Assembly (NCBI GenBank): GCA_051047955.1
Contig: JBPGPT010000066.1
Coordinates: forward strand, 1 to 32,267
From: Cystobasidiomycetes sp. EMM_F5
Taxonomy: Eukaryota
Direction: 5' to 3'
Length of the DNA: 32,267 nucleotides
Both the position numbers and the translations under genes were made by a program. Within the stretch, counting starts at the first letter, position 1, and each line of letters starts with the position of its first letter. Of the stretch, positions 1 to 27,962 are shown in pieces. A model generated the notes under the pieces. It searched no databases. It was not told the DNA's origin and worked only from the letters and a program-made list of their open reading frames with translations.

Positions 1-63
1 GGAGCTGGAGCTGGAGCTGGAGCTGGAGCTGGAGCTGGAGCTGGAGCTGGAGCTGCTGCTGCT
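1..63. repeat. (GGAGCT)9 + (GCT)3 microsatellite, continuing past the window edge; encodes at least 21 Ser on the minus strand
   Basis: Nine perfect hexamers at 1-54, then GCT x3; read as AGC TCC codons in the open minus frame. Confidence 0.95.
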
Positions 64-1531
64 CTGAGGCGACTGACGTGCTTGAGGGGAGAAAAGCTGA
101 GTGATACGGTTGTACATCGAGCGGAAAGGGCGGCCGGATGTGCTGACAGGGTTTGCTGGTACACGTGGAGCAGCAAATGTACTTCCCAAACGTCCGCCAT
201 GAGTAATGCCGTCGCCATTTGGGCCAGGAAGTGGTTGTCTCCTACTCTGAGTCTGTGTGGATCTCGGAGATATGCTCGTGGAGGACCTCTGAGACGGAGG
301 AGTGACGGATGATATCGAAGGAGATGTATCATTGTGTATAGATCCAGCTTGCGGCGATACGGTCGAAGCATGAGCATTAGAAAGTGGAAGCCGGTGTGCA
401 TTTGTGTTCTGGTAGGGTCCTACTCCACCTGCCGGGTTGGGCAGCTCCGTCGCGATCTGCGGAGCAGGCGCTGTGGCGGTATCGTATCTGTCAATACCGA
501 TGGTAGCTCGAGCCCCACCTGCAGCACTTGCGTTGACGGCTGATGGAGCGGGCACAGGTGTTTCTGTAGGTCGCCTTCTCGCTACGTTGTTGCGGGCTCT
601 TGCACCCCTCCTTGACGCAGTAGTGTGTGGATCTACGGGTCGCGGGTCCGAAATATTGACTTGCGGTGTCACGTTGGTGGGTGCCGCAGGCTGCTGAAGC
701 GTCGAAATCCCAGTCTGCGAGGGCTCAATTGGTAATACATCACTATTCCTGCGTAACGCAGCGGGATTGACTTGAACGTAGTTACGGACAAGAACCTCAT
801 ACAGAGTCTGTCCGGCGATCTGTATTTGCTGTAGTTGCTCGTATTGCATGTTGGATATATGATTTGTGATGTCGACATACAGGCTGGACAATGCCAGGCT
901 CAAGTTCGAGTTCCTCGAGTCGTCTAATGCTGCGGGCCTAACAACGTGCCGGTATCGGATTGTCGACCAGTCGAGAACGCCGGTATTGTTCAGGGCTGCA
1001 GTGAAAGCTGCAACCTGCTGAGAGACTTCGGCGGGTCTGATATGACGTTCAGGTTGGCGTGCTGCTCGGAGAAAAATTTCATCCACATCGTTGATTGAGG
1101 GTTCAGGCCTTGCGCCAGAAAGAGCAATATCTAGGGCCTGCTCGTTGTTAACGAAACTCATTGCGGCGTTCTGTGGGAGGAGAGGCACTGACCATTGTCA
1201 GTACGCAGTTCCGTTCGGAACCTAATTCTGTCAAATTTCGGATTGATACAGGACATCTTCTCCTTTGCAAGGTCGGTAAGAGCGATGGAATCATTGTATT
1301 CGCAGCGGTGGTAGTCTGCAATGTTTGCTGCGGCTGCACGTCACGGACAGTACTAGCCATAGTCGTCGAAGTTTGCCGCCGGTTGCGAGCACTCCATACC
1401 ACTTGACCCTGAGCATCCTGTGTCGAAGGTGAGCCATGTAACGGTGAACTCCAGAGCCTAAGGTTACGTACTCTTCGCAAGGCTACGGTATTGGCCGCCG
1501 GAGAGTTCCTCAAAGACCCCGAATCAGACAT
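1..1531 (-). CDS. Orphan protein, 3'-partial (runs off the left edge): one copy of the novel helical domain followed by an S/T/P/R-rich disordered tail ending in poly-Ser. Exons 1531-1193 and 1137-<1
   Basis: ORF 1148..1531 joins through intron 1192-1138 (GTCAGT...GTTAAC...CAG, 55 nt, phase 0) to a frame I translated without a stop from 1137 to 1 (ALDIALSGARPEPSINDVDEIF...QSSSSS). This frame is missing from the ORF track because it has no stop inside the window. Confidence 0.8.
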
Positions 1532-1942
1532 TATGTGGAGTAAAGCTTAATCTCGTTATGTAGCAGTGGAGGGGTACCAGCACGGACTTTAGTGTGTCTG
1601 CACGATGACAAGTTACTTTCGCTTTGTCAGACACTGGCATCGCTTTTACACACAGCTTCTGTACTGCGTGTCGACTGTACAGCCTTCCTCACATCGCCTA
1701 GCGATGCGTGAAATTTCACACTTCACAGCCTGGGAGATCGAGAGTCCCATGCTCTGGGATTGACACGATAGTCAGAGATACATCTGACAGCGGGTTTGCA
1801 CCCATGACAATGTCTGAAGGTTAGTAAGTAGGCCCTGTAGCTCAGCACATGGTTGTGATTGATAGAGTGAATAAATTGTTCTCTAGCTAAACGCATCGCA
1901 AATGGTATCGTTACTCAAACGTTACTCAATGTAGTTGAGTGA

Positions 1943-4900
1943 TCACCCATTCCGCCTGTGCGTATTCCTGTTGGCACTACTGTGACCGATAGACCGCATA
2001 GTCGCTGGGTAGTAGCCTTCGTCTGCTGCTGCGCGCGTCGAAAGTCGATTGCGGCTATGATTCTGATGGTACTGAGCACTGCCGCGACGTGGCTGCTGGC
2101 TTGGGGTACGTCTCTGACGAATGGGCTCCACTTGTGCTGCAGTCTCGCGTCGTTGGCCAGGTGCGTACGGATACTCATCTTCATCTAAAAAACGTATCTG
2201 AGTAGCGTTAGTATCTGTGGAGTAGTAGACTGCGTTCGAGCGTCCTGGCGGACCAGAGATGCTTCTTGCATTGCGTGGAGTAACGTCATTCTGAGTGACT
2301 TGGCGGCTTCGCAGTCTGCCGTTGACGATGGCGGGCCGCCATGTAGTATTCGGCGCATCCAAGGTGACCGTACCACCCAGAAGGCCATAATTCTCGGCAC
2401 CGCGGGCCCTGCCTAGATTCGGTATTGTACGTGTTAGTCCCGGTCTTCCGCTGTCAGGAGTGTACGAGGGACGTCGTGAGGCGCTTTGTGATGGTGATGC
2501 AGTTTGCGTACGCTGTATTGACAGATCCGACGGATAAGTGTACGAATAGATAGTTGACCTGGACGCTAGCCGCTCTAGCCTTCGGCGTTCTTCGCGTCGT
2601 CGCAGCCAAGCGTACAACGGACGTCTTACACTCCATCTACCAGTCGTGCGACGCGCAACCGGGCCATACGGGGTTACTGTACTGGAATTGCGCCTAGCAC
2701 CCCTGCGCGAATGAGTTGACGTGCTTTCGGACGTGGCAAGACTTGTCCTTCTCTCTGTTGATGGTGGCGTGGCTGATACTCTGATAAGCCTTCTGAACCA
2801 ATTCCGAAGCCTCATCCAGCGCGGGCTTTCTGGAGCCGTCCTTGAGCCGATCGAAAAGCGAGAATTGTCGTGATATGGAGTCTGTAACAAGCCTGCCTGA
2901 TGCTGAGTATCGTCACGGTGAAGTGACGTGTATTGAGAAGGGCTGACATCCCTTGACACCTGCTCTCGATTCATCGCGGTCGGTCGAGCCTGAGTAACAG
3001 CTGTCGTTTGCGTACGTTGGGATACGTCGGCATTTGGGTTGACAGTCAGGGTTTCGCGACTCTGTGAGACGACGTTGCGTGTTTGTACGCGCCTCCGCGC
3101 CACCCCTGTCTGCAAAGTAGATGGTTGAATAGACACCGAATTTCGCGCTGGCGGAGGCAATGGCGTCGCAGTGATTGGTGGCCGTTGAGGACGATTGATG
3201 TCAGCTGTGCGCAACAATTGCGCCGGCTGTGACGCTGTACCTGCCTGGCCAGCAGCTGCCTGACCACCAGCATCTACAAGATTTGTGGAGGTGCGTCGAG
3301 TGGTCGCTGGCAGGGTAGTAGTTCGTATTTCAGATGCTACTGTTGTTTGGGGATTGCGGGCAACTCTGACTGTATCGCCTCGAGTCGGAGCGCCTCGCAC
3401 ATTGATGTTCGTCCGCTGGGTATGCATCGTTGACTGCGTTGACTCAGACTGTATTCTTGCAATTGGTGCAGTGTTTGCGTTCGCAGGTGTAGCAGTACTG
3501 TTTTGTCTCAAAATGTTCAGCAGCGCCACCGCGCTGGCGGCTAGGGTAGACCGATCTTGCAATTGGTTGATGGCGCGCTCGGAGACAGCGTAAAACTGAC
3601 GTCTTGCGTTGGTGTAAAATGCTACAGAATCTTCAACGCTTGTTGTGAGTGTGTTGTGACCCCACAGTACTCTATATTGCTCTTCAAGACGATTGAGGAG
3701 GTTGAGATTACGCAATTCTTGCATGAAAACACCGGCCGCCGCTCGTACATCGTCACGCAATGGCATCGTGGCCCCCTGGCCGCCCAATGTTGCGTTGAAG
3801 GCCGCGTGTAACACGGCGTCAAGGTCGCGTATCCGATCGGGTATCAGCGTGATGTGGAGGGCCTAGACAAGCAAATTATCAACAATCAGCGCTGTGTCGA
3901 ATAGCTTCGAATGCAAATGTCACTTACATATGTTGTGATCAGGTCAAGCTCATACGATACTCCCGTCAAAGGATGGATGGCATAAGGTAGCCTGTTGGTA
4001 GATCTGCGAGTTGAGATCTCCTCAGACGCATTGACAGGTGGAACGTACGCCTGCTCTCTGACTGATGCAGCCGTCTGTCCCAGAGCAGAAGCTGTGGTTG
4101 TCGCTTGTCGAAAGCTTGTGGAACCTTGGTCGACTGTCGAGCGCCTGCTATTGCGATGAGCGGCGCCGCGTGTTTGTGCGTTGCTCTGCATCGGGTCTGT
4201 CTGCGACCGAGGAGGTTGACGTGATGCAGTAAGATGTGCTGGCGGTGGCACAGGCGTCACAGGGTTCGCTGACTGACGAAGGACAGAGCTTGCTCTCGGT
4301 CGTCCAGGTGCTGCGGTCGAAACGGTGCCTGATTGACCGCCGCTAGCGGCAGACCCCAAAACAGGTCGAGCATTTGCAGGTTCGATGTCTGCACCAGTGC
4401 TCCCTGCTGGTGTTTGTCGGCTACTGCGAGGAATGCTGTTTGCACTGGCGCGGCGGACAGTCTGAAGTGTGGATATGACTAGCTGCGTAGACACTGTTCT
4501 CGAAATTGGGACAACATTCGATGTTGCGTCTAAAGCCGCTGGTGGATACGTGCGTTCCAGAGCGGCAAGCAGCTCGCGTGCATGGGCATCGATAGCTGAC
4601 CGGTCCCGCAGTCTCCGAATAGCTCTGTCGCAGGCTGCGTAGACGGCCGAGAGTGCTTCAGGACCGTAGCCCGCATTGCGCTGTGCTAGCAAGCCGTCAT
4701 AAAGATTGGCAGCTCGCAATTCTTGGACGAGTCGCTCAGCTGCCATTCTTACTGCATGCTCCGGCAGCGGCCGGTTGTCGTTCGAAGTGCGACCAGCCAC
4801 GTTATTCAAGACAGCAACCAGATTGCGTGTGGCCTCGTGTTCCAGCAGTATGTGGAGAACCTAATTCGGTACTTGGTCAATAGGACCGAGCAACTTATCG

Positions 4901-5280
4901 CTGGCGTGATTGTCACGTACATATGTCACGATAGTATCGTTATTGTAGTCTTCGGTCAATCCGTGAATGACTAAAGGAGTGTCCCTAAGGCTCAACACTG
5001 TGGAGTCTGTGGAGGGCTGGCGCTGCGCACTGATCAGCGGGTTGTGAGTTTGCTGCTCGACTGCCGCAATTGCTTGACGCCGTACGGTTGCGGTGTTCGC
5101 GGCCAGTTGTGGGTTTGCGGTGTTATGAGTAGCAGCAGCCCGGGGGCGCTCATCTCCGCCAGTGTGGCTGGTGAAAGACATGGTCGGGCTGTAACGCGAA
5201 GTTGCATTTATATTGCGGCTACGGCGCTGGCCACCATTACTAGACATAGATGAGACTGATCCATCCGGGTTTGCCGCCAT
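1943..5280 (-). CDS. Orphan protein of about 1070 aa with two copies of the novel helical domain separated by disordered R/S/T-rich linkers. Exons 5280-4921, 4860-3928, 3862-1943
   Basis: Three ORF-track ORFs join through introns 4920-4861 (GTACGT...TTGAC...TAG, 60 nt) and 3927-3863 (GTAAGT...CTGAT...TAG, 65 nt). Both are phase 0 and frame-preserving. Confidence 0.85.
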
Positions 5281-9746: not shown

Positions 9747-9859
9747 GACTGCGATGGAACAGCTGGAGCTGCGATAAGACGGCAGCCTTGGATTAATAGG
9801 GCGGGTCATGTGATATCCGTAACACCGCTAAGGTCCATACTGACTGGGTCACCGCCAGC

Positions 9860-11983
9860 ATGGCAGCCCTGCATCATCGTCAGCAGTATCAGCAACATCA
9901 GCAATATCAGCATCAGCACCCGCAGCATCGCAGCTCGTCAGGCAGGCATCGCGACAGTCAAGAGACGGGCAGCGACGATAGCACGGCAGTCGTTATTCGG
10001 GGCAAGTCGAGCAGCGTAGCCAGAGACTCGTGGTATGCTTTGATTATGGTTCATCATGACTGCTCACAGCTGATTACATTTGCCAGGATCCTCTTTCCGC
10101 ACAATCATAATGGCGATCCAGCTTCCAGGTTGAGTGCGCCGATAAGGCAATCTGCCATAGACTCTGGAGAAGCTTCAACAAGAACGCGCCAACATCGCAC
10201 TACTAATACACACAGCGATCCATCTGAACCTATCCTCCTCAATCCCTTTGTGCTGGATGTCGCTTCCAATCCAGCTGGTGAATCCGCCACCCAAGCAGGA
10301 TCATCTAGCTGGACTATTGTCCAGGATGGAGACGAGACGCGTCTGAGCAAGTCGCTGAATGAAAGTGCACAATTCCAATCCGTCGGGAACACCGGGGGCG
10401 TCACACGACCTGAAACGGCTAGCGAAGCCGAAGGTGTTGAGCAGCAGTGGTCCTCTTTGCCCCGTCAGGCAGGAGATGGATCCTACTTCTTCTTTGACGA
10501 TGAAGATCAGGAGCCATCTCCTGACGTCCAGAAGAGTCCGGCACTTGATGTAACGGACAATATCAAGCTTCAAGCATCTGTATACCCCGTCGAAACGTCT
10601 GTCCAGCCTAGAAGTACTCTCGCGGCAGCTACGTCGACTGCAGGTAATAGCGATATACTGTCCTTACCATCTTCGTTATCCGCTCCATCCGTTTCTGAAG
10701 CGTCTCGGGGCCTATTGTCTCAAGACGGGGGCAGTCTACTCTCTTCTCCAGTGATGGGCAAGCCAGGCAATTTACCCCATGAAACCGATGATACACCTAA
10801 AGAAGGAGGTCTGACTGAGGCTGCGCTCAAGGCGATTGACGAAAAGTCATATTCCACGATAGAATGGTCAGACACCGCCGTCCAACAAGAAGCGACAGTA
10901 TTTGCAGACGCTGACGAGGAGCTGCTGTCGAGAGCGCCTGATGCAATCAGTGCCGGCATCCGCCCGGTTCGTGTTTCGAAATATCAGCCTCTTCCTCTGA
11001 TAGCTGCGGATATACTGGCGCCGCGAGCTCCGTCGCTCACAAGCAGTAATGGCAACTGCGGCATTCAAAGTACTGGCATCAGTAGCAGAGCAAGTAACGG
11101 GTTCAAGCGAAGGCATCGTAACGCGGGGTTGAGCGATAAAGGTTCCAAGCGTTCGCACACTAGCAAACAATCAGCCGAAGTGCCGGTACTTCGAAAGAGA
11201 GACGATAAAGGAAAGCGTGGTGCATCGACCGGTCGTAAGCTCCTGCCTGCTCAAGTAACTGTGGCCGCAAACGCAGCGACATCGCTCAAGAGTGCTGTAA
11301 GCTCTTTGCTGGAAGTTGACGATGAGCTGCTGGCGATGATGTCGGCTCAACCTGCCAGTGTTCTCGAGTGAGTATTGAACAGGAAAGAAAGGCTGTCGAT
11401 TCACAATTAACGATATTCGTTGACGTAATCCAGGCAAGCCCGACCGAGTGGACAAGCAGAGGAGACGACATGGACCCATTCTCACCGCTCAAAACGCGGC
11501 AATCACCGTCGACACGACTCTGGTAGCGTCACTAGCGCATTCTCTGCACATGTCGCTGCCGAGCTGGGTGACAGCCCAGGTATCCGGCAAATGTTCACCA
11601 GTGCTCATAACGAGTACTATACGAGCGATGAAGACACGGAAACGGAAGAATATCCGAAGAGCGGGACCTCCATCCGGCAGCCCAGCCGAGACCGCTCCCG
11701 TGCACTTACCAGTGATGAGGCGCACTACAGCAGGCACAGTGCGACTCAGCGACACTATGTTCGGAGTAGCTTGTCAGCTTGGGATGCAGCCGCAGCCACG
11801 ATGGATGAGGCGACTCGGCTTGAATTAGAGACCTTTCTTCAGACACACGAACCAGAATTCTTTGAGCGTTATCGTAACAGTCTCAGGGAGGCGGACGACC
11901 TGCATGCCGCTAGTCTCGGCCTCCATGAGCCCTTCTCCCTCCACTCTCTGCGGTACCTCATTCGCAAGTCAATCTCCAGCTAA
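9860..11983 (+). CDS. Uncharacterised, largely disordered protein with a Q/H-rich N-terminus. Probable introns 10033-10086 and 11368-11433
   Basis: The 503-aa ORF links through GTGAGT...TTGAC...CAG (11368-11433) into a frame continuous with ORF 11591..11983. A second, in-frame 54-nt GTATGC...CTGAT...CAG intron is likely near the start. Confidence 0.75.
9881..9928 (+). repeat. Degenerate CAG/CAT-rich coding repeat (QQYQQHQQYQHQHPQH)
   Basis: cagcagtatcagcaacatcagcaatatcagcatcagcacccgcagcat. Confidence 0.7.
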
Positions 11984-14878: not shown

Positions 14879-17875
14879 CTACGCCGCAAGGCTCTTGAGC
14901 ACCTTTTCAGTCAATACGCCTGGCGGACACGACTGTGTAATCTGCATAGAGCCGCGTCAGTCGTGTTTCACATCATTGCAAACCGGGAAAACTGACTTGT
15001 TGCGCGATTTGCCGACCACCAGTCTCCCAACCAGCCCGAATGACTGGAAGGCACAGACTTCCCACCAGTATATCAGAGATGAAGCTGTCCCAATTACTTC
15101 CACTACCAGGCCCACTCCCGGCCGGCAGCAGAATACCCTTCCCGTACTTCCTCCACCTCAGCGCCGATACTACCAGCTTTAGGATACGTCGAGCGAACCG
15201 GTTCCTGGCCTCAATTGCGTCTGTATCAAGTAAAGTAGGCGGATTGCGTATGTCTGACAGGAAAGGTTGTACTATCTCAGTATATCTGGCTGCATAATAC
15301 TGAAAGCGACCGAGAAAGGCAGTGATGAGGTGAATGAAGCGAGCATGACTGGTCTCGATGACGTAGGTGAGCTGTTCTACCATGTTGAGTGCACTTGTTG
15401 TTGCCTTCGAAGATAGAGGGTCAAATGCCTCGAGGGTAAGCCGCCGTAGCTTGGGTATGACGACGGTCGTAATAAGCGCGACAACGACATTGTCATCCGC
15501 TGGTTGCGGCCCGGCAGCTTCCTCGATAGTATGCTGATAGTCTGCTAGTGAATGCTGCCACCGGCAATCGTCCAACTTTGTCGGCGGCGGGAGTTCCTGA
15601 ATCTACAGATGAATTTACAGAGAATTTCAGCGTGCAAGTCCCAAAACTGGACGCAACCGCAGCAACGCACATTGAATGGATTCCAGGATGCCATTTCACA
15701 TCGCGCCCAGAACTCCCACACTTCCACCATGCCAAGACCACCGAAAGCATTGGCATAGTCCTCCGGATACTGCTTGAGCCACTCATCAAAACGTGGTCGA
15801 ACACCCATCTCAGGGTCTTTAAACTCCTCCGCTTTCACATCTGAAAAGATGGCTTGAGAGTCGGCGATGAGTGCCTCGCTTGCAGTTCTTAAATCGGTAG
15901 AGTCGGAAGTATGTAGATCGTCCTCTGTCTCCATGCCATCTTCGACGGTCCCAATTGAGCGCCGCTGCCTTCTGCGGACCCGTTCCTCCCGCCTTGTGCG
16001 CCGGACCAGTGAGCGAGGAGACAGTTCGCTTGCTTCCGACCTGGATCTCCCAAATTCATCCATATCGCGTTGAGTTTGCTGTCCATCCACGTCCATAACA
16101 TCGGTATCTGAATTTGCCGCTTTCCCTGTGACAGTCCACTCGCACGGGATCTGGGCTCCAGTAAAGCTGGCCACATCGTCGCTGTCGTCCTTGTACCGTC
16201 TTATTTCAATGAGCGACATACGCTCCTTTTGTATACTCAGATTATCTGCTTCCACCTTCTCCAGCAGGGGGTATTTGGCATCAAGAAAAGACGCCATATC
16301 GTCCGCCCACGACCGGAATGCGGTATACCATTCATACTTGGTCGAAACCCGATCAATTTCTGCGCGAAGTTCTGTCGTCTGTACTTGTAGAGCAGTCTGC
16401 TCTCGCTCGAGCGAGCTGAGTAGGGTGTCAGACTCCACTTTAGATGTCTGTATCGCTTGCAATGAAGCTGTGAGGCGTGCTTGCACGTTTTTCAGAGTCG
16501 GCATCGGAGCCAAGTCAGGAACTGCAGTTACAGAAGGTATCAATCACGTTCCCCGAATCGTTTTGAAAATGAGCTCACTTTGCGCAGGTCGATAAATCGC
16601 TTGCCCAGCATCCTCTTCTTTGTACGTAGGTCTTGCGGCACCACGTCTGATGAGCTCCTCCTGCCATCTCTGTTCGTCCTCATCTTCCTCCTCGAGTATA
16701 CCAGGAACATTGTCATCGGCAGTCCCTTCTATCAATTCTCGCATCTCGTCACGTCTACCCCTAGCCGCTGCCTTGCGTGCTTTCTTGCCAAGAGGGACTC
16801 GTTCACCGCCTTCTGTGTATGCTGCATGCTCGTCGTCACCTGAAGCAACCTCTTCGTCGTCCGATTCGCGGGGTAACCGCGAAGTACCCGATTTGACTGG
16901 ATATGCTAGTGCCGTAGAGGATGCTCTTCCTCCGAGAGAGATGAAGTCTTCGCTCGTAGACATAGAAGCATCTCCGTTCTGTATACCTAACCGTCGAGCA
17001 GTCTCCCGTTTCGCTTTCGCCGCAGCTATAGTTGCAGAACTTGGCAGAAATGCAGACATGTCGTCTGTGAATCGTTTAAGCTCAGCTTGAGGCGAAGGCA
17101 AACGAGCATGGATGACTCACCTTGGTCGAGGCCTACTTGGTCGTCATTATCATAAGAGCCGATAATCAGGCCCCCGTTACTGCCAGACAAGTCGCCAGTA
17201 TCCTGCTCGATACCTTGGCGAGGCGGTGCCGACATCGTACTAGCTTTTAATGAAGCCAGATAGTCGGTGGAATAGCTTGGCCCAACATTTGATGATACTC
17301 CTGCGCTTGACCGAGTTATATTTGCTTGCGACATCGAATTCGACAATGCTCTGCAACAAGACGTTAATATGTGCTTAGATCGCAATGAGGCCATGAATGT
17401 TGTTGCGAACGTACCTTGCGACCGCTTGGTTGGCTCCGTTGTCCTTGCCTGACCCGCCTATGGAATTGGATGAAACTGCTATTGGCCGTTTGAGCTTCCG
17501 TATGCGATCTTCTGGCCTTCGCACGGAACTCGGCGGATTTTCAAGATCACCCTCTTTGTTATGTACGCTCGTCTCGCTGTCATTCGCTTCGTCATCGAAA
17601 CTCAGAGCCAGTCTGGAGCTCGACTGCCTAGATAGCGACGCCTTTCCAGACGAACTGCCGCCAAGAGCAGATACATTTCTGTCTTTCCCCTTGCTTCGGA
17701 ATATGACGGTGGGTGCAGAAGTGTCGCCGGCGTCGTCCACTCTGCTTGCTGCCTTTTCATTGCCGTCATCAACTATCGCAGCTCTGGCTTTGCCCTTTTT
17801 CGAGCCACGCTGCTTGAAGGACGGTGTGATGTTGAGAGGCCCACTGCCATCGTCGTCGTCTCCATACGAGGCCAT
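14879..17875 (-). CDS. NTR2: NTR2 / GCFC (GC-rich sequence DNA-binding factor-like) spliceosome disassembly factor, 6 exons
   Basis: Five GT-AG introns join ORFs 17375.., 17026.., 16544.., 15545.. and 14973... Motifs YSTDYLASLKAST and SATIAAAKAKRETARR..EDFISL (NTR2 region), a coiled coil, and IFSDVKAEEF..F..W...YP..Y..AFGGLG..WEFWAR (GCFC domain). Ends ..KSLAA*. Confidence 0.85.
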
Positions 17876-25884: not shown

Positions 25885-26604
25885 GCTTTCTACTCTTGAA
25901 GGGCGAGAGAATGTTGCACGCAAACCACAGATGTGAAGTTCTCCATGTATTCATCTACTCTGATGTTCATTTCAGGATTTAAGAACCAATTTTCTTCAGA
26001 TCTTGAAGCGTCCCCGCAATGCGCACCTTTGTGAATTTGGCACGCCTTCTGCAAATTCGACCATTGTCGCATCTTCATGAGAGGGCTGGGGCTGCCATCA
26101 CTCATGATGCATGCAGGCTTGCCTTACTTGAACTTCAAACCGCATATCATTTGGCAATGTATCGTTCAGGTTTTATAAGTTAAAGCTTACCCGAACGCTG
26201 CAAACACTATCATCATACATGGTCAACAAAGGAGCTGGATCTAATGTTATTATTCGTACAGGAGACCTTTTAAACTCTTTATCCGAATTTCTCTTTCAAC
26301 TTGACACATATCCGTTTGCTTCACCTCCCTGTTACTGTCGCTGCCACAAAGGGCCTCGATAGCCGCCGTATAAGGTTTCAACAGCATCTAACAGTGTCTG
26401 TATGCTCTATTCAGAGTGTTGCAGCAGACTGCCAGTGATGCGAATAGCTACAGTAGTTACGCGCTTTGACCACCCCTGATGGTAGCGGTTGCATCCTCTA
26501 GATCTGATTCTACTACACGCGCGCTCACAGAACCTATTCGTTGGTTGCCATTACCCTCTACGACCTTCCTCAAAAGCTGCTCCGCGCGTCTGTAGCTGAT
26601 TACG

Positions 26605-27962
26605 ATGCAGCCCGCAGCCAAAGTTGGGACAGGCTCTGCAGAGTCGGCGGCACGGCAAAGCAACGAGGTGAACGCCCTGCAGGATGGTAATACTGGCAAG
26701 GAAAAGGCAGCAAACGCAACTGACAATGCCGTAGTGCTACACACATGCGCAACGATGCAGTCACCGGCCCGCTGTACTCTCTTGGACCTCCCCCGCAAAG
26801 TACTTCTCAATATTTTCGCTCAGTGCGACGGCAATGTGCGTTTGAGTGAGTGCTCCACGTCAACAGCAAATCGAAATGCATCTGACCTAATCAATGGACC
26901 AGCGTACGCGACCAATTGCTCGACAATATGCGACATTGTCACAGAAATTGGCGTGCCTGATGTGGGGCTGGAACTGGAAATCACCAGCAGGCGTCTTCAA
27001 CGATATGCAACCTCACCGAGCACGACTCCAAGGCTACGAAAACTCCTCATGAGCCGTCAGACAATTTTCGTTCGATCTAAGCACTCTGATCTGGAAAAGT
27101 ATGCTGCTGAAGCTGTGCCAAAGGAGCTCTACGTCCCCATTATCAGACCGAGGGCTCTACATGTAGACGTATCACATGCACCACATGTTGAATACTGGCG
27201 TTGCCTCGACAGCAGTAGAATACGCGACTTGTCCCTCTCTATGATTCTTATAGAAGAGGGCGGTATCGTACCCGACGGTGCCCTTCAAGCAGCAGGGAGA
27301 CTGACGATTGAAAGCGCGACTACCGTCAGGGAACTTACGCTGGAGGACATACCGGACTTCGACATAGACGAAAAGTACCAAGATGTGCAGTTCACACGCC
27401 TTGCAAGTTTCAAAACGAACGAATGCCGCCCTCCGTTAACAGAACGAGGGCTCTATGCGTCAATTTTGTCAAGAAGCCCACGTTTGACCTGTCTATCTAT
27501 CGCCTATTACCCGGAGGACAGACATGCGTTATTGAGTTTGCTTCGTCTTTGTGGGCGCACACTCACCTCACTGGCCCTTGAAGCATACGGGGTAGGTGAC
27601 CACATACAACAATGGTCTCAAGACGATAGCCGAGACTGCATGGCTTCACTCCCTTCACTTGAGACACTCAATTTGGCAAGTTTTGATATACCGTTGAATG
27701 CCCTGGGTAAATTACCTGTGTTATCACGACTCACTCTTCAGGAATATCGCTTTCCTCGCTTCTCAAAAGTAATAATTGGCTACCTACCTTGAAGCGTATC
27801 GATATTACCTCACCTCCTGATCAGGAGGCAATGGCTCAGCGAATGGAGCTAGACGACTTAGAGCGTCTGCAAAACTCCCCGGATGAGCAAGACATCCACG
27901 CGGACGAGATAGAGCGGCTCTGCCAGATCAGAGGCATAGACATTTCTGTAGACTACTCCTAG
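26605..27962 (+). CDS. F-box / LRR-like protein; probable in-frame intron 26846-26902; frame discontinuity near 27707-27760 (possible pseudogene)
   Basis: F-box-like TLLDLPRKVLLNIFAQC; LRR-like LxxLxL repeats (IRDLSL, VRELTL, LTCLSI, LTSLAL, LETLNL, LSRLTL). The main frame stops at 27792, but a protein-like tail (WLPTLKRIDI..IERLCQIRGIDISVDYS*) continues in another frame to 27962. Confidence 0.72.

Follow-up and report, generated by a model that had tools for sequence, protein, structure and literature searches.

The window analysed here, 32,267 nucleotides (nt) of contig JBPGPT010000066.1 from the basidiomycete yeast Cystobasidiomycetes sp. EMM_F5 (GenBank assembly GCA_051047955.1), carries at its left end two tandem minus-strand genes, here called A and B, whose predicted proteins do not contain a single lysine over 1070 and 492 known amino acids (aa), respectively. 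This absence, which had been missed by an initial annotation of the same DNA, is the most unusual feature of both proteins. A and B are lysine-desert disordered proteins carrying an unclassified, internally duplicated module, which is found twice in A and once in B. Our overall reading combines the anatomy and history of the genes and their module with a function in which the loss of lysine would protect the proteins from being tagged, and we put its probability at roughly 0.55. For the part that concerns anatomy and history our confidence is high.

Five minus-strand open reading frames (ORFs; 5295-4864, 4860-3889, 3862-1946, 1546-1151 and 1197-1) resolve into two tandem genes when three GT..AG introns are removed, an operation that brings ORFs of 639, 324 and 399 aa back into frame. 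Left unspliced, each frame runs into a stop or a shift at all three introns. When intron 1 of gene A is read in frame, it supplies the sole lysine codon of ORF 5295-4864 and then a TAG stop. The introns and frames are as the initial annotation had described them: all three introns are phase 0, and splicing gives the junctions TY/VLHILL, TY/ALHITL and TM/ALDIAL (the slash marks the intron). The resulting gene models are as follows.

1943-5280, minus strand: gene A, with exons 5280-4921, 4860-3928 and 3862-1943 (TGA stop included), encoding 1070 aa.
4861-4920, minus strand: intron 1 of gene A, 60 nt, GTACGT..TAG, phase 0, cutting module copy A1 at TY/VLHILL.
3863-3927, minus strand: intron 2 of gene A, 65 nt, GTAAGT..TAG, phase 0, cutting module copy A2 at TY/ALHITL.
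1-1531, minus strand: gene B, with exons 1531-1193 and 1137-1, open at the contig end and encoding at least 492 aa.
1138-1192, minus strand: intron of gene B, 55 nt, GTCAGT..CAG, phase 0, cutting module copy B at TM/ALDIAL.

From these models, with splice sites predicted from the DNA sequence, we conclude that A and B are genuine genes of this basidiomycete yeast and tandem paralogues of each other. At the contig start (window 1-67), gene B is truncated by a simple repeat whose minus strand encodes poly-Ser and whose plus strand encodes Gly-Ala repeats.

The 1562 codons of A and B together include no in-frame AAA or AAG, whereas the two remaining frames of this DNA hold 40 and 45 AAR triplets, a difference that provides independent support for the reading frames and exon limits. 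Twelve neighbouring ORFs contain 156 lysines in 4307 aa (3.6%), a frequency at which about 57 would be expected in A and B; the probability of finding none is about 1e-25. Even the 445 residues of the modules alone, again with no lysine, give a P of about 1e-7. Six-frame translation of the window gives 78 ORFs of 100 aa or longer, and only the four large ones of A and B are without lysine. Arginine makes up 11.7% of A and B as against 7.7% of the neighbours, and asparagine (AAY) is likewise enriched, at 5.9% versus 3.4%. About a third of the arginine codons (58/182) are AGA or AGG, which lie one transition away from a lysine codon, yet no lysine occurs; this argues for selection against lysine itself and not for an effect of base composition. 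From these counts we strongly infer that lysine has been selected against in A and B. The total lack of one amino acid in two large paralogues is a strong sign of selection, and one that can be read from sequence alone.

Both proteins are very basic. Protein A has an isoelectric point (pI) of 11.4, with 135 arginines and one cysteine; the known 492 aa of protein B have a pI of 11.3, with 47 arginines and two cysteines. In each, the residues S, T, P, R, Q, G, N, A and E make up about 72-73% of the sequence. Neither A nor B has a hydrophobic N-terminus or a membrane segment, the maximum 19-residue hydropathy staying below 1.0. Within the first 33 residues (segments starting at residues 1-25), the best 9-residue mean hydropathy is -0.01 in A and 0.76 in B, and no N-terminal signal peptide was found in either protein, as judged by hydropathy and not by a dedicated predictor. 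Both are predicted to be intracellular, very basic and mostly disordered proteins. RRx[ST] sites number ten in A, where about 3.5 would be expected from composition (a hand estimate), and three in B; those of gene A lie in the tail at aa 256-1026 (window about 4515-2200, minus strand), and the sites of both proteins may be targets of basophilic kinases. A motif scan of A and B found no PPxY, LPxY or RGG motif and two D-box-like motifs in A, which gave no lead.

The only part of A and B likely to fold would be a module of about 160-170 aa, which is near neutral (pI 5.7-7.0) within these very basic proteins. In it, a short N-terminal piece would be followed by about five helices and then by a tail that is conserved. 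Its three copies are the following.

4456-4989, minus strand (intron within the span): module copy A1, aa 98-255 of A, with a short N-terminal piece, predicted helices and the conserved tail PAAL..SNVVPI..ISTLQ.
3416-3996, minus strand (intron within the span): module copy A2, aa 409-580 of A, with five helices after the intron in a low-confidence model.
688-1264, minus strand (intron within the span): module copy B, aa 90-263 of B, the most diverged copy.

Spliced modules were compared by Smith-Waterman alignment, with 1000 shuffles per pair. The A1-A2 alignment scored 144 against 32.5±5.5 for shuffled sequences (z 20; no shuffle reached the score) and spans the whole module, the piece before the intron included, with 37% of residues in common. 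A1 and A2 are clearly homologous by this comparison. Pairwise scores for copy B were lower: 63 with A2 (z 5.9; 0/1000 shuffles) and 45 with A1 (z 2.3; reached by 35 of the 1000 shuffles). A profile of spliced A1 and A2 matched B at 17.1 bits, and the best of 5000 shuffled versions of B reached 8.9 bits. This match is collinear from profile position 8 to 194 and places all three introns in one column (TY/VL, TY/AL and TM/AL). Moreover, a tail of the form PAAL..S-x-V-x-PI..ISTLQ is common to all three copies. We accept B as a copy because of the profile score, the same intron column, the tail, the adjacency of the genes and their composition, including the absence of lysine, and we regard it as a weak but real relative of A1 and A2.

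That copy B might instead resemble the others through chance and composition, so that a true duplication would exist inside gene A only, draws on the comparisons of exon-only pieces. In these, BLASTP returned only a 52-aa match for A1-A2 (E 1e-6), a 13-aa match for A1-B (E 0.029) and no match for A2-B; hhalign of A1 and A2 against B gave E 0.022 and a probability of 2.2%; and the A1-B score of the spliced modules lies within the range of its shuffles. Such a coincidence is very unlikely, since composition-matched shuffles never approached the profile score, A2-B stands well clear of its own shuffles, and B shares the intron phase and column, the tail motif, an adjacent position and the lack of lysine with A. 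MAFFT aligned the first half of B in another register (VRPAA versus VRxAA) than did HMMER and hhalign, and the register of B helices 2-3 is not settled between them; we followed HMMER and hhalign, which put the second helices of the two predicted models described below at about the same positions. No fourth copy was found in a six-frame profile scan of the window, where the next best of 684 ORFs had an E of 1.5. The initial annotation had proposed three copies of a module in two tandem genes, with an intron interrupting every copy at a matching place in the alignment, and both parts of that proposal are upheld by the spliced comparisons.

The codons of A1 and A2 agree at 53% of first, 53% of second and 33% of third positions. 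The proportion of synonymous differences (pS) is 0.75, which is saturated, and that of nonsynonymous differences (pN) is 0.47. Synonymous saturation together with conserved first and second codon positions indicates that the duplication is old and that the protein sequence has been held by selection. When the three introns are forced into global alignment, no more than 31-37 of their 60-65 bases agree, a figure that has no shuffle control beside it. Because the phase-0 position is identical in all three copies, the module was very probably copied at the DNA level together with its intron. Two duplications of a unit that included the intron explain the arrangement best, one of them internal to gene A and the other copying the whole gene. 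This agrees with the earlier proposal of internal and gene duplication followed by strong divergence, and the common intron position makes the module a clean example of duplication at the DNA level.

Searches for relatives of A and B were empty. Pfam contained no family at E <= 1 for any of the five exon translations, and the best PDB sequence (profile) match of the module, at E 0.42, was not significant; the earlier statement that no known family could be recognised therefore holds. For database searches, the profiles and queries covered the post-intron part of the module only, and the profile was three sequences deep. The ESM Atlas gave no usable match for A2 or A1. A word-indexed search of a 5.8-billion-cluster collection found no relative (residues 1-150 of exon 3 against proteins of 351-1119 aa, exon 2 against longer ones), and an HMMER scan of 1.84 billion representatives with the three-copy profile returned two matches, both of them ORF fragments of the window itself (P0001 and P0002). 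On JGI metagenome contigs, none of 597 pattern matches to the A2 module could be confirmed, nor could any of 358 to the neighbouring major facilitator superfamily (MFS) protein, which was searched in an attempt to use synteny.

The reach of these searches was calibrated with the LON/RING protein of the window. Its best non-self matches were 59-64% identical over most of the length (the window's own, 89%), two shorter local matches were 69% identical over about half, and Cystobasidium minutum, the nearest named species, gave 49%. With identities this low for LON/RING, a fast-changing helical module could lie beyond the reach of the search. The genome announcement describes the isolate as lacking a sister taxon among 27 sequenced Cystobasidiomycetes (PMC12697161), so the empty searches mean less than they appear to, and the orphan status of A and B may reflect an unsampled lineage only. 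The earlier description of the domain as lineage-specific is consistent with the failure to find any relative, which for an isolate of this kind is a weak test. A and B can also be compared with lineage-restricted (orphan) fungal gene families that have expanded by tandem and internal duplication. They are like them in having no detectable relatives, a tandem arrangement and strongly diverged copies; unlike such families, they may be orphans through lack of sampling, and their duplicates are old, with the protein under selection.

AlphaFold2 models of A2 with a three-row alignment and of B alone were both all-helical, with helices at comparable places, at a predicted local distance difference test (pLDDT) of 48.9 and 47.5, respectively. 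Foldseek comparison of the models with the PDB gave no match at E <= 0.001, which is a weak test at pLDDT below 50. The structural check suggested earlier thus gave neither a confident model nor a match in the PDB. A complex prediction for A1 and A2 scored 0.00; it was run without controls, the partner's own fold is uncertain, and the score speaks neither for nor against binding. The module could also be a very diverged member of a described domain family that sequence methods missed, as the three-sequence profile, the lack of a sequenced sister and the fast divergence of helical domains would allow. We consider this unlikely given the Pfam result, the PDB best match and the two Atlas feature searches, none of which offered a usable candidate.

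By the definition of Szulc et al. (2023), a lysine desert is a continuous run without lysine that extends over 150 aa or more, or over 50% or more of the sequence (PMC10665810). In A and B this run takes up 100% of the known length; their composition is that of mostly disordered proteins and is enriched in arginine, all of which they share with described lysine-desert proteins. They differ in that the lysine desert is a sequence pattern and not a family, in that A and B have none of the domains of described desert proteins, and in that their desert covers folded modules as well as disordered parts. Such deserts are enriched among disordered ubiquitin-system proteins, according to a review and the Szulc study (PMC13696103, PMC10665810). 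In Saccharomyces cerevisiae, the review describes a 398-residue lysine desert in Slx5 and lysine-free, disordered substrate-binding arms in San1 (PMC13696103), and adding one lysine to the San1 arms at each of 17 positions led to rapid degradation, as the same two sources report (PMC13696103, PMC10665810). A and B resemble these proteins in their long lysine-free disordered regions, and a sensitivity to single lysines like that of San1 would explain a total and not a partial loss. Unlike Slx5 and San1, which are RING ligases, A and B have one and two cysteines and no RING, and no sequence similarity to either was found. Human p14ARF is a small regulator. Like A and B, it naturally has no lysine at all (PMC13696103), but A and B are far larger and contain a helical module in several copies, and they showed no homology to it.

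From these parallels we propose an explanation. A and B have lost every lysine and kept many arginines, and would work in a setting where one exposed lysine would be tagged with ubiquitin or SUMO and the protein destroyed; a loss that is complete, and not just a bias, is in keeping with conditions under which every exposed lysine puts the protein at risk. The helical modules would dock a partner, and the Arg/Ser/Thr-rich tails would bind flexibly, perhaps under the control of phosphorylation. On this view, A and B may act near a ubiquitin or SUMO ligase or otherwise have to escape lysine tagging, a proposal we regard as tentative, at well below even odds. No RING, UBL, UBA or STI1 domain, such as would mark a desert-bearing ubiquitin-proteasome component of the Slx5, San1, RAD23 or UBQLN type, was found in A or B with Pfam at E <= 1, and because no ubiquitin-system domain is present, the link of A and B to ubiquitin is one of analogy only. 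A bolder version, in which A and B belong to a new family that purged all lysines from more than 1500 residues, folded modules included, and works within reach of a ubiquitin or SUMO ligase, perhaps as adaptors, decoys or inhibitors built on a helical docking module not seen before, strikes us as doubtful. If it were true, A and B would be among the most extreme natural lysine deserts and would give a handle on a fungal proteostasis component without a counterpart in model yeasts. Should A and B prove to evade ubiquitin, the lysine-desert idea would extend to a whole protein with an unclassified docking domain, from a class of leaf yeasts that has been little studied; should sampling of the lineage bring up relatives with a normal lysine content, A and B would become an ordinary orphan family.

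Several observations weigh against our overall reading. Proteins that bind nucleic acids or form condensates can also favour arginine over lysine, and A and B have no ubiquitin-system domain, no RING, UBL or UBA and no clear cluster of SUMO-interacting motifs. No orthologue of either gene was found in the searches described above. Both AlphaFold models are poor, no fold is assigned, and the fold search was empty at its threshold. The splice junctions are predicted from sequence: no RNA run is listed, and the public annotation is ab initio. Finally, BLASTP did not recover copy B, and the hhalign probability for it was only 2.2%.

The main rival to tag evasion is a specific need for arginine, in which A and B would be nuclear or nucleolar, nucleic-acid-binding or condensate-forming proteins whose guanidinium contacts lysine could not replace. 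The high pI, the enrichment of arginine over the neighbours and the share of about 72-73% for the nine residue types listed above all speak for it, and Arg-rich and Lys-rich systems differ in their phase behaviour, according to the review (PMC13696103). A preference for arginine, however, predicts bias and not total absence over 1562 residues; the near-neutral folded modules also have no lysine in 445 aa, and A and B have no RGG motif. We give this reading an appreciable chance, if a minority one. Sparing of lysine, in which A and B would be made under lysine starvation and the limiting amino acid removed by selection, has only the complete absence of lysine in its favour. Amino-acid sparing usually lowers the content of a residue and seldom abolishes it, and the genes have no regulatory or metabolic context pointing to starvation, the neighbours being an MFS transporter and housekeeping genes; we regard this account as extremely improbable.

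The initial annotation had raised nonself recognition or host interaction as a possible role for such genes, a suggestion that found no support here, as A and B have no HET, NACHT, HeLo or other Pfam domain. A related possibility is that the proteins are exported unconventionally into plant or competitor cells, where the loss of lysine would shield them from the ubiquitin system of the recipient. The yeast does live on leaf surfaces (PMC12697161), and a precedent exists in toxin catalytic subunits, whose activity fell when lysines were restored, a proteasome-sensitive effect (PMC13696103). Nevertheless, neither N-terminus is hydrophobic in the manner of a signal peptide, A is large (1070 aa) and disordered, nothing suggests secretion, and the genome announcement reports no pathogenicity for this leaf-surface isolate (PMC12697161). 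Export of this kind is therefore very improbable.

Elsewhere in the window the genes are ordinary fungal ones: an MFS transporter, a DeoC-type aldolase, NTR2 and a LON/RING ligase. At window 15545-17116 (minus strand), two neighbouring ORFs each carry part of the match to NTR2 (nineteen-complex-related protein 2), so that an intron or a shift of frame should separate them. Two plus-strand ORFs, of 523 aa (window 9800-11371) and 398 aa (26596-27792), have no Pfam match at E <= 0.001. The source yeast comes from a magnolia leaf surface, and its genome was annotated ab initio without RNA data, as stated in the announcement (PMC12697161). Three DNA runs were compared with the window, the contig-start repeat excluded. 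They gave no variants and six 151-nt contig pieces, from two phyllosphere metagenome runs (X1 and X2), that match window 1156-2820, five of them identical and one with a single other letter. These matches indicate that the same or a very close strain was present at low depth in leaf-surface samples.

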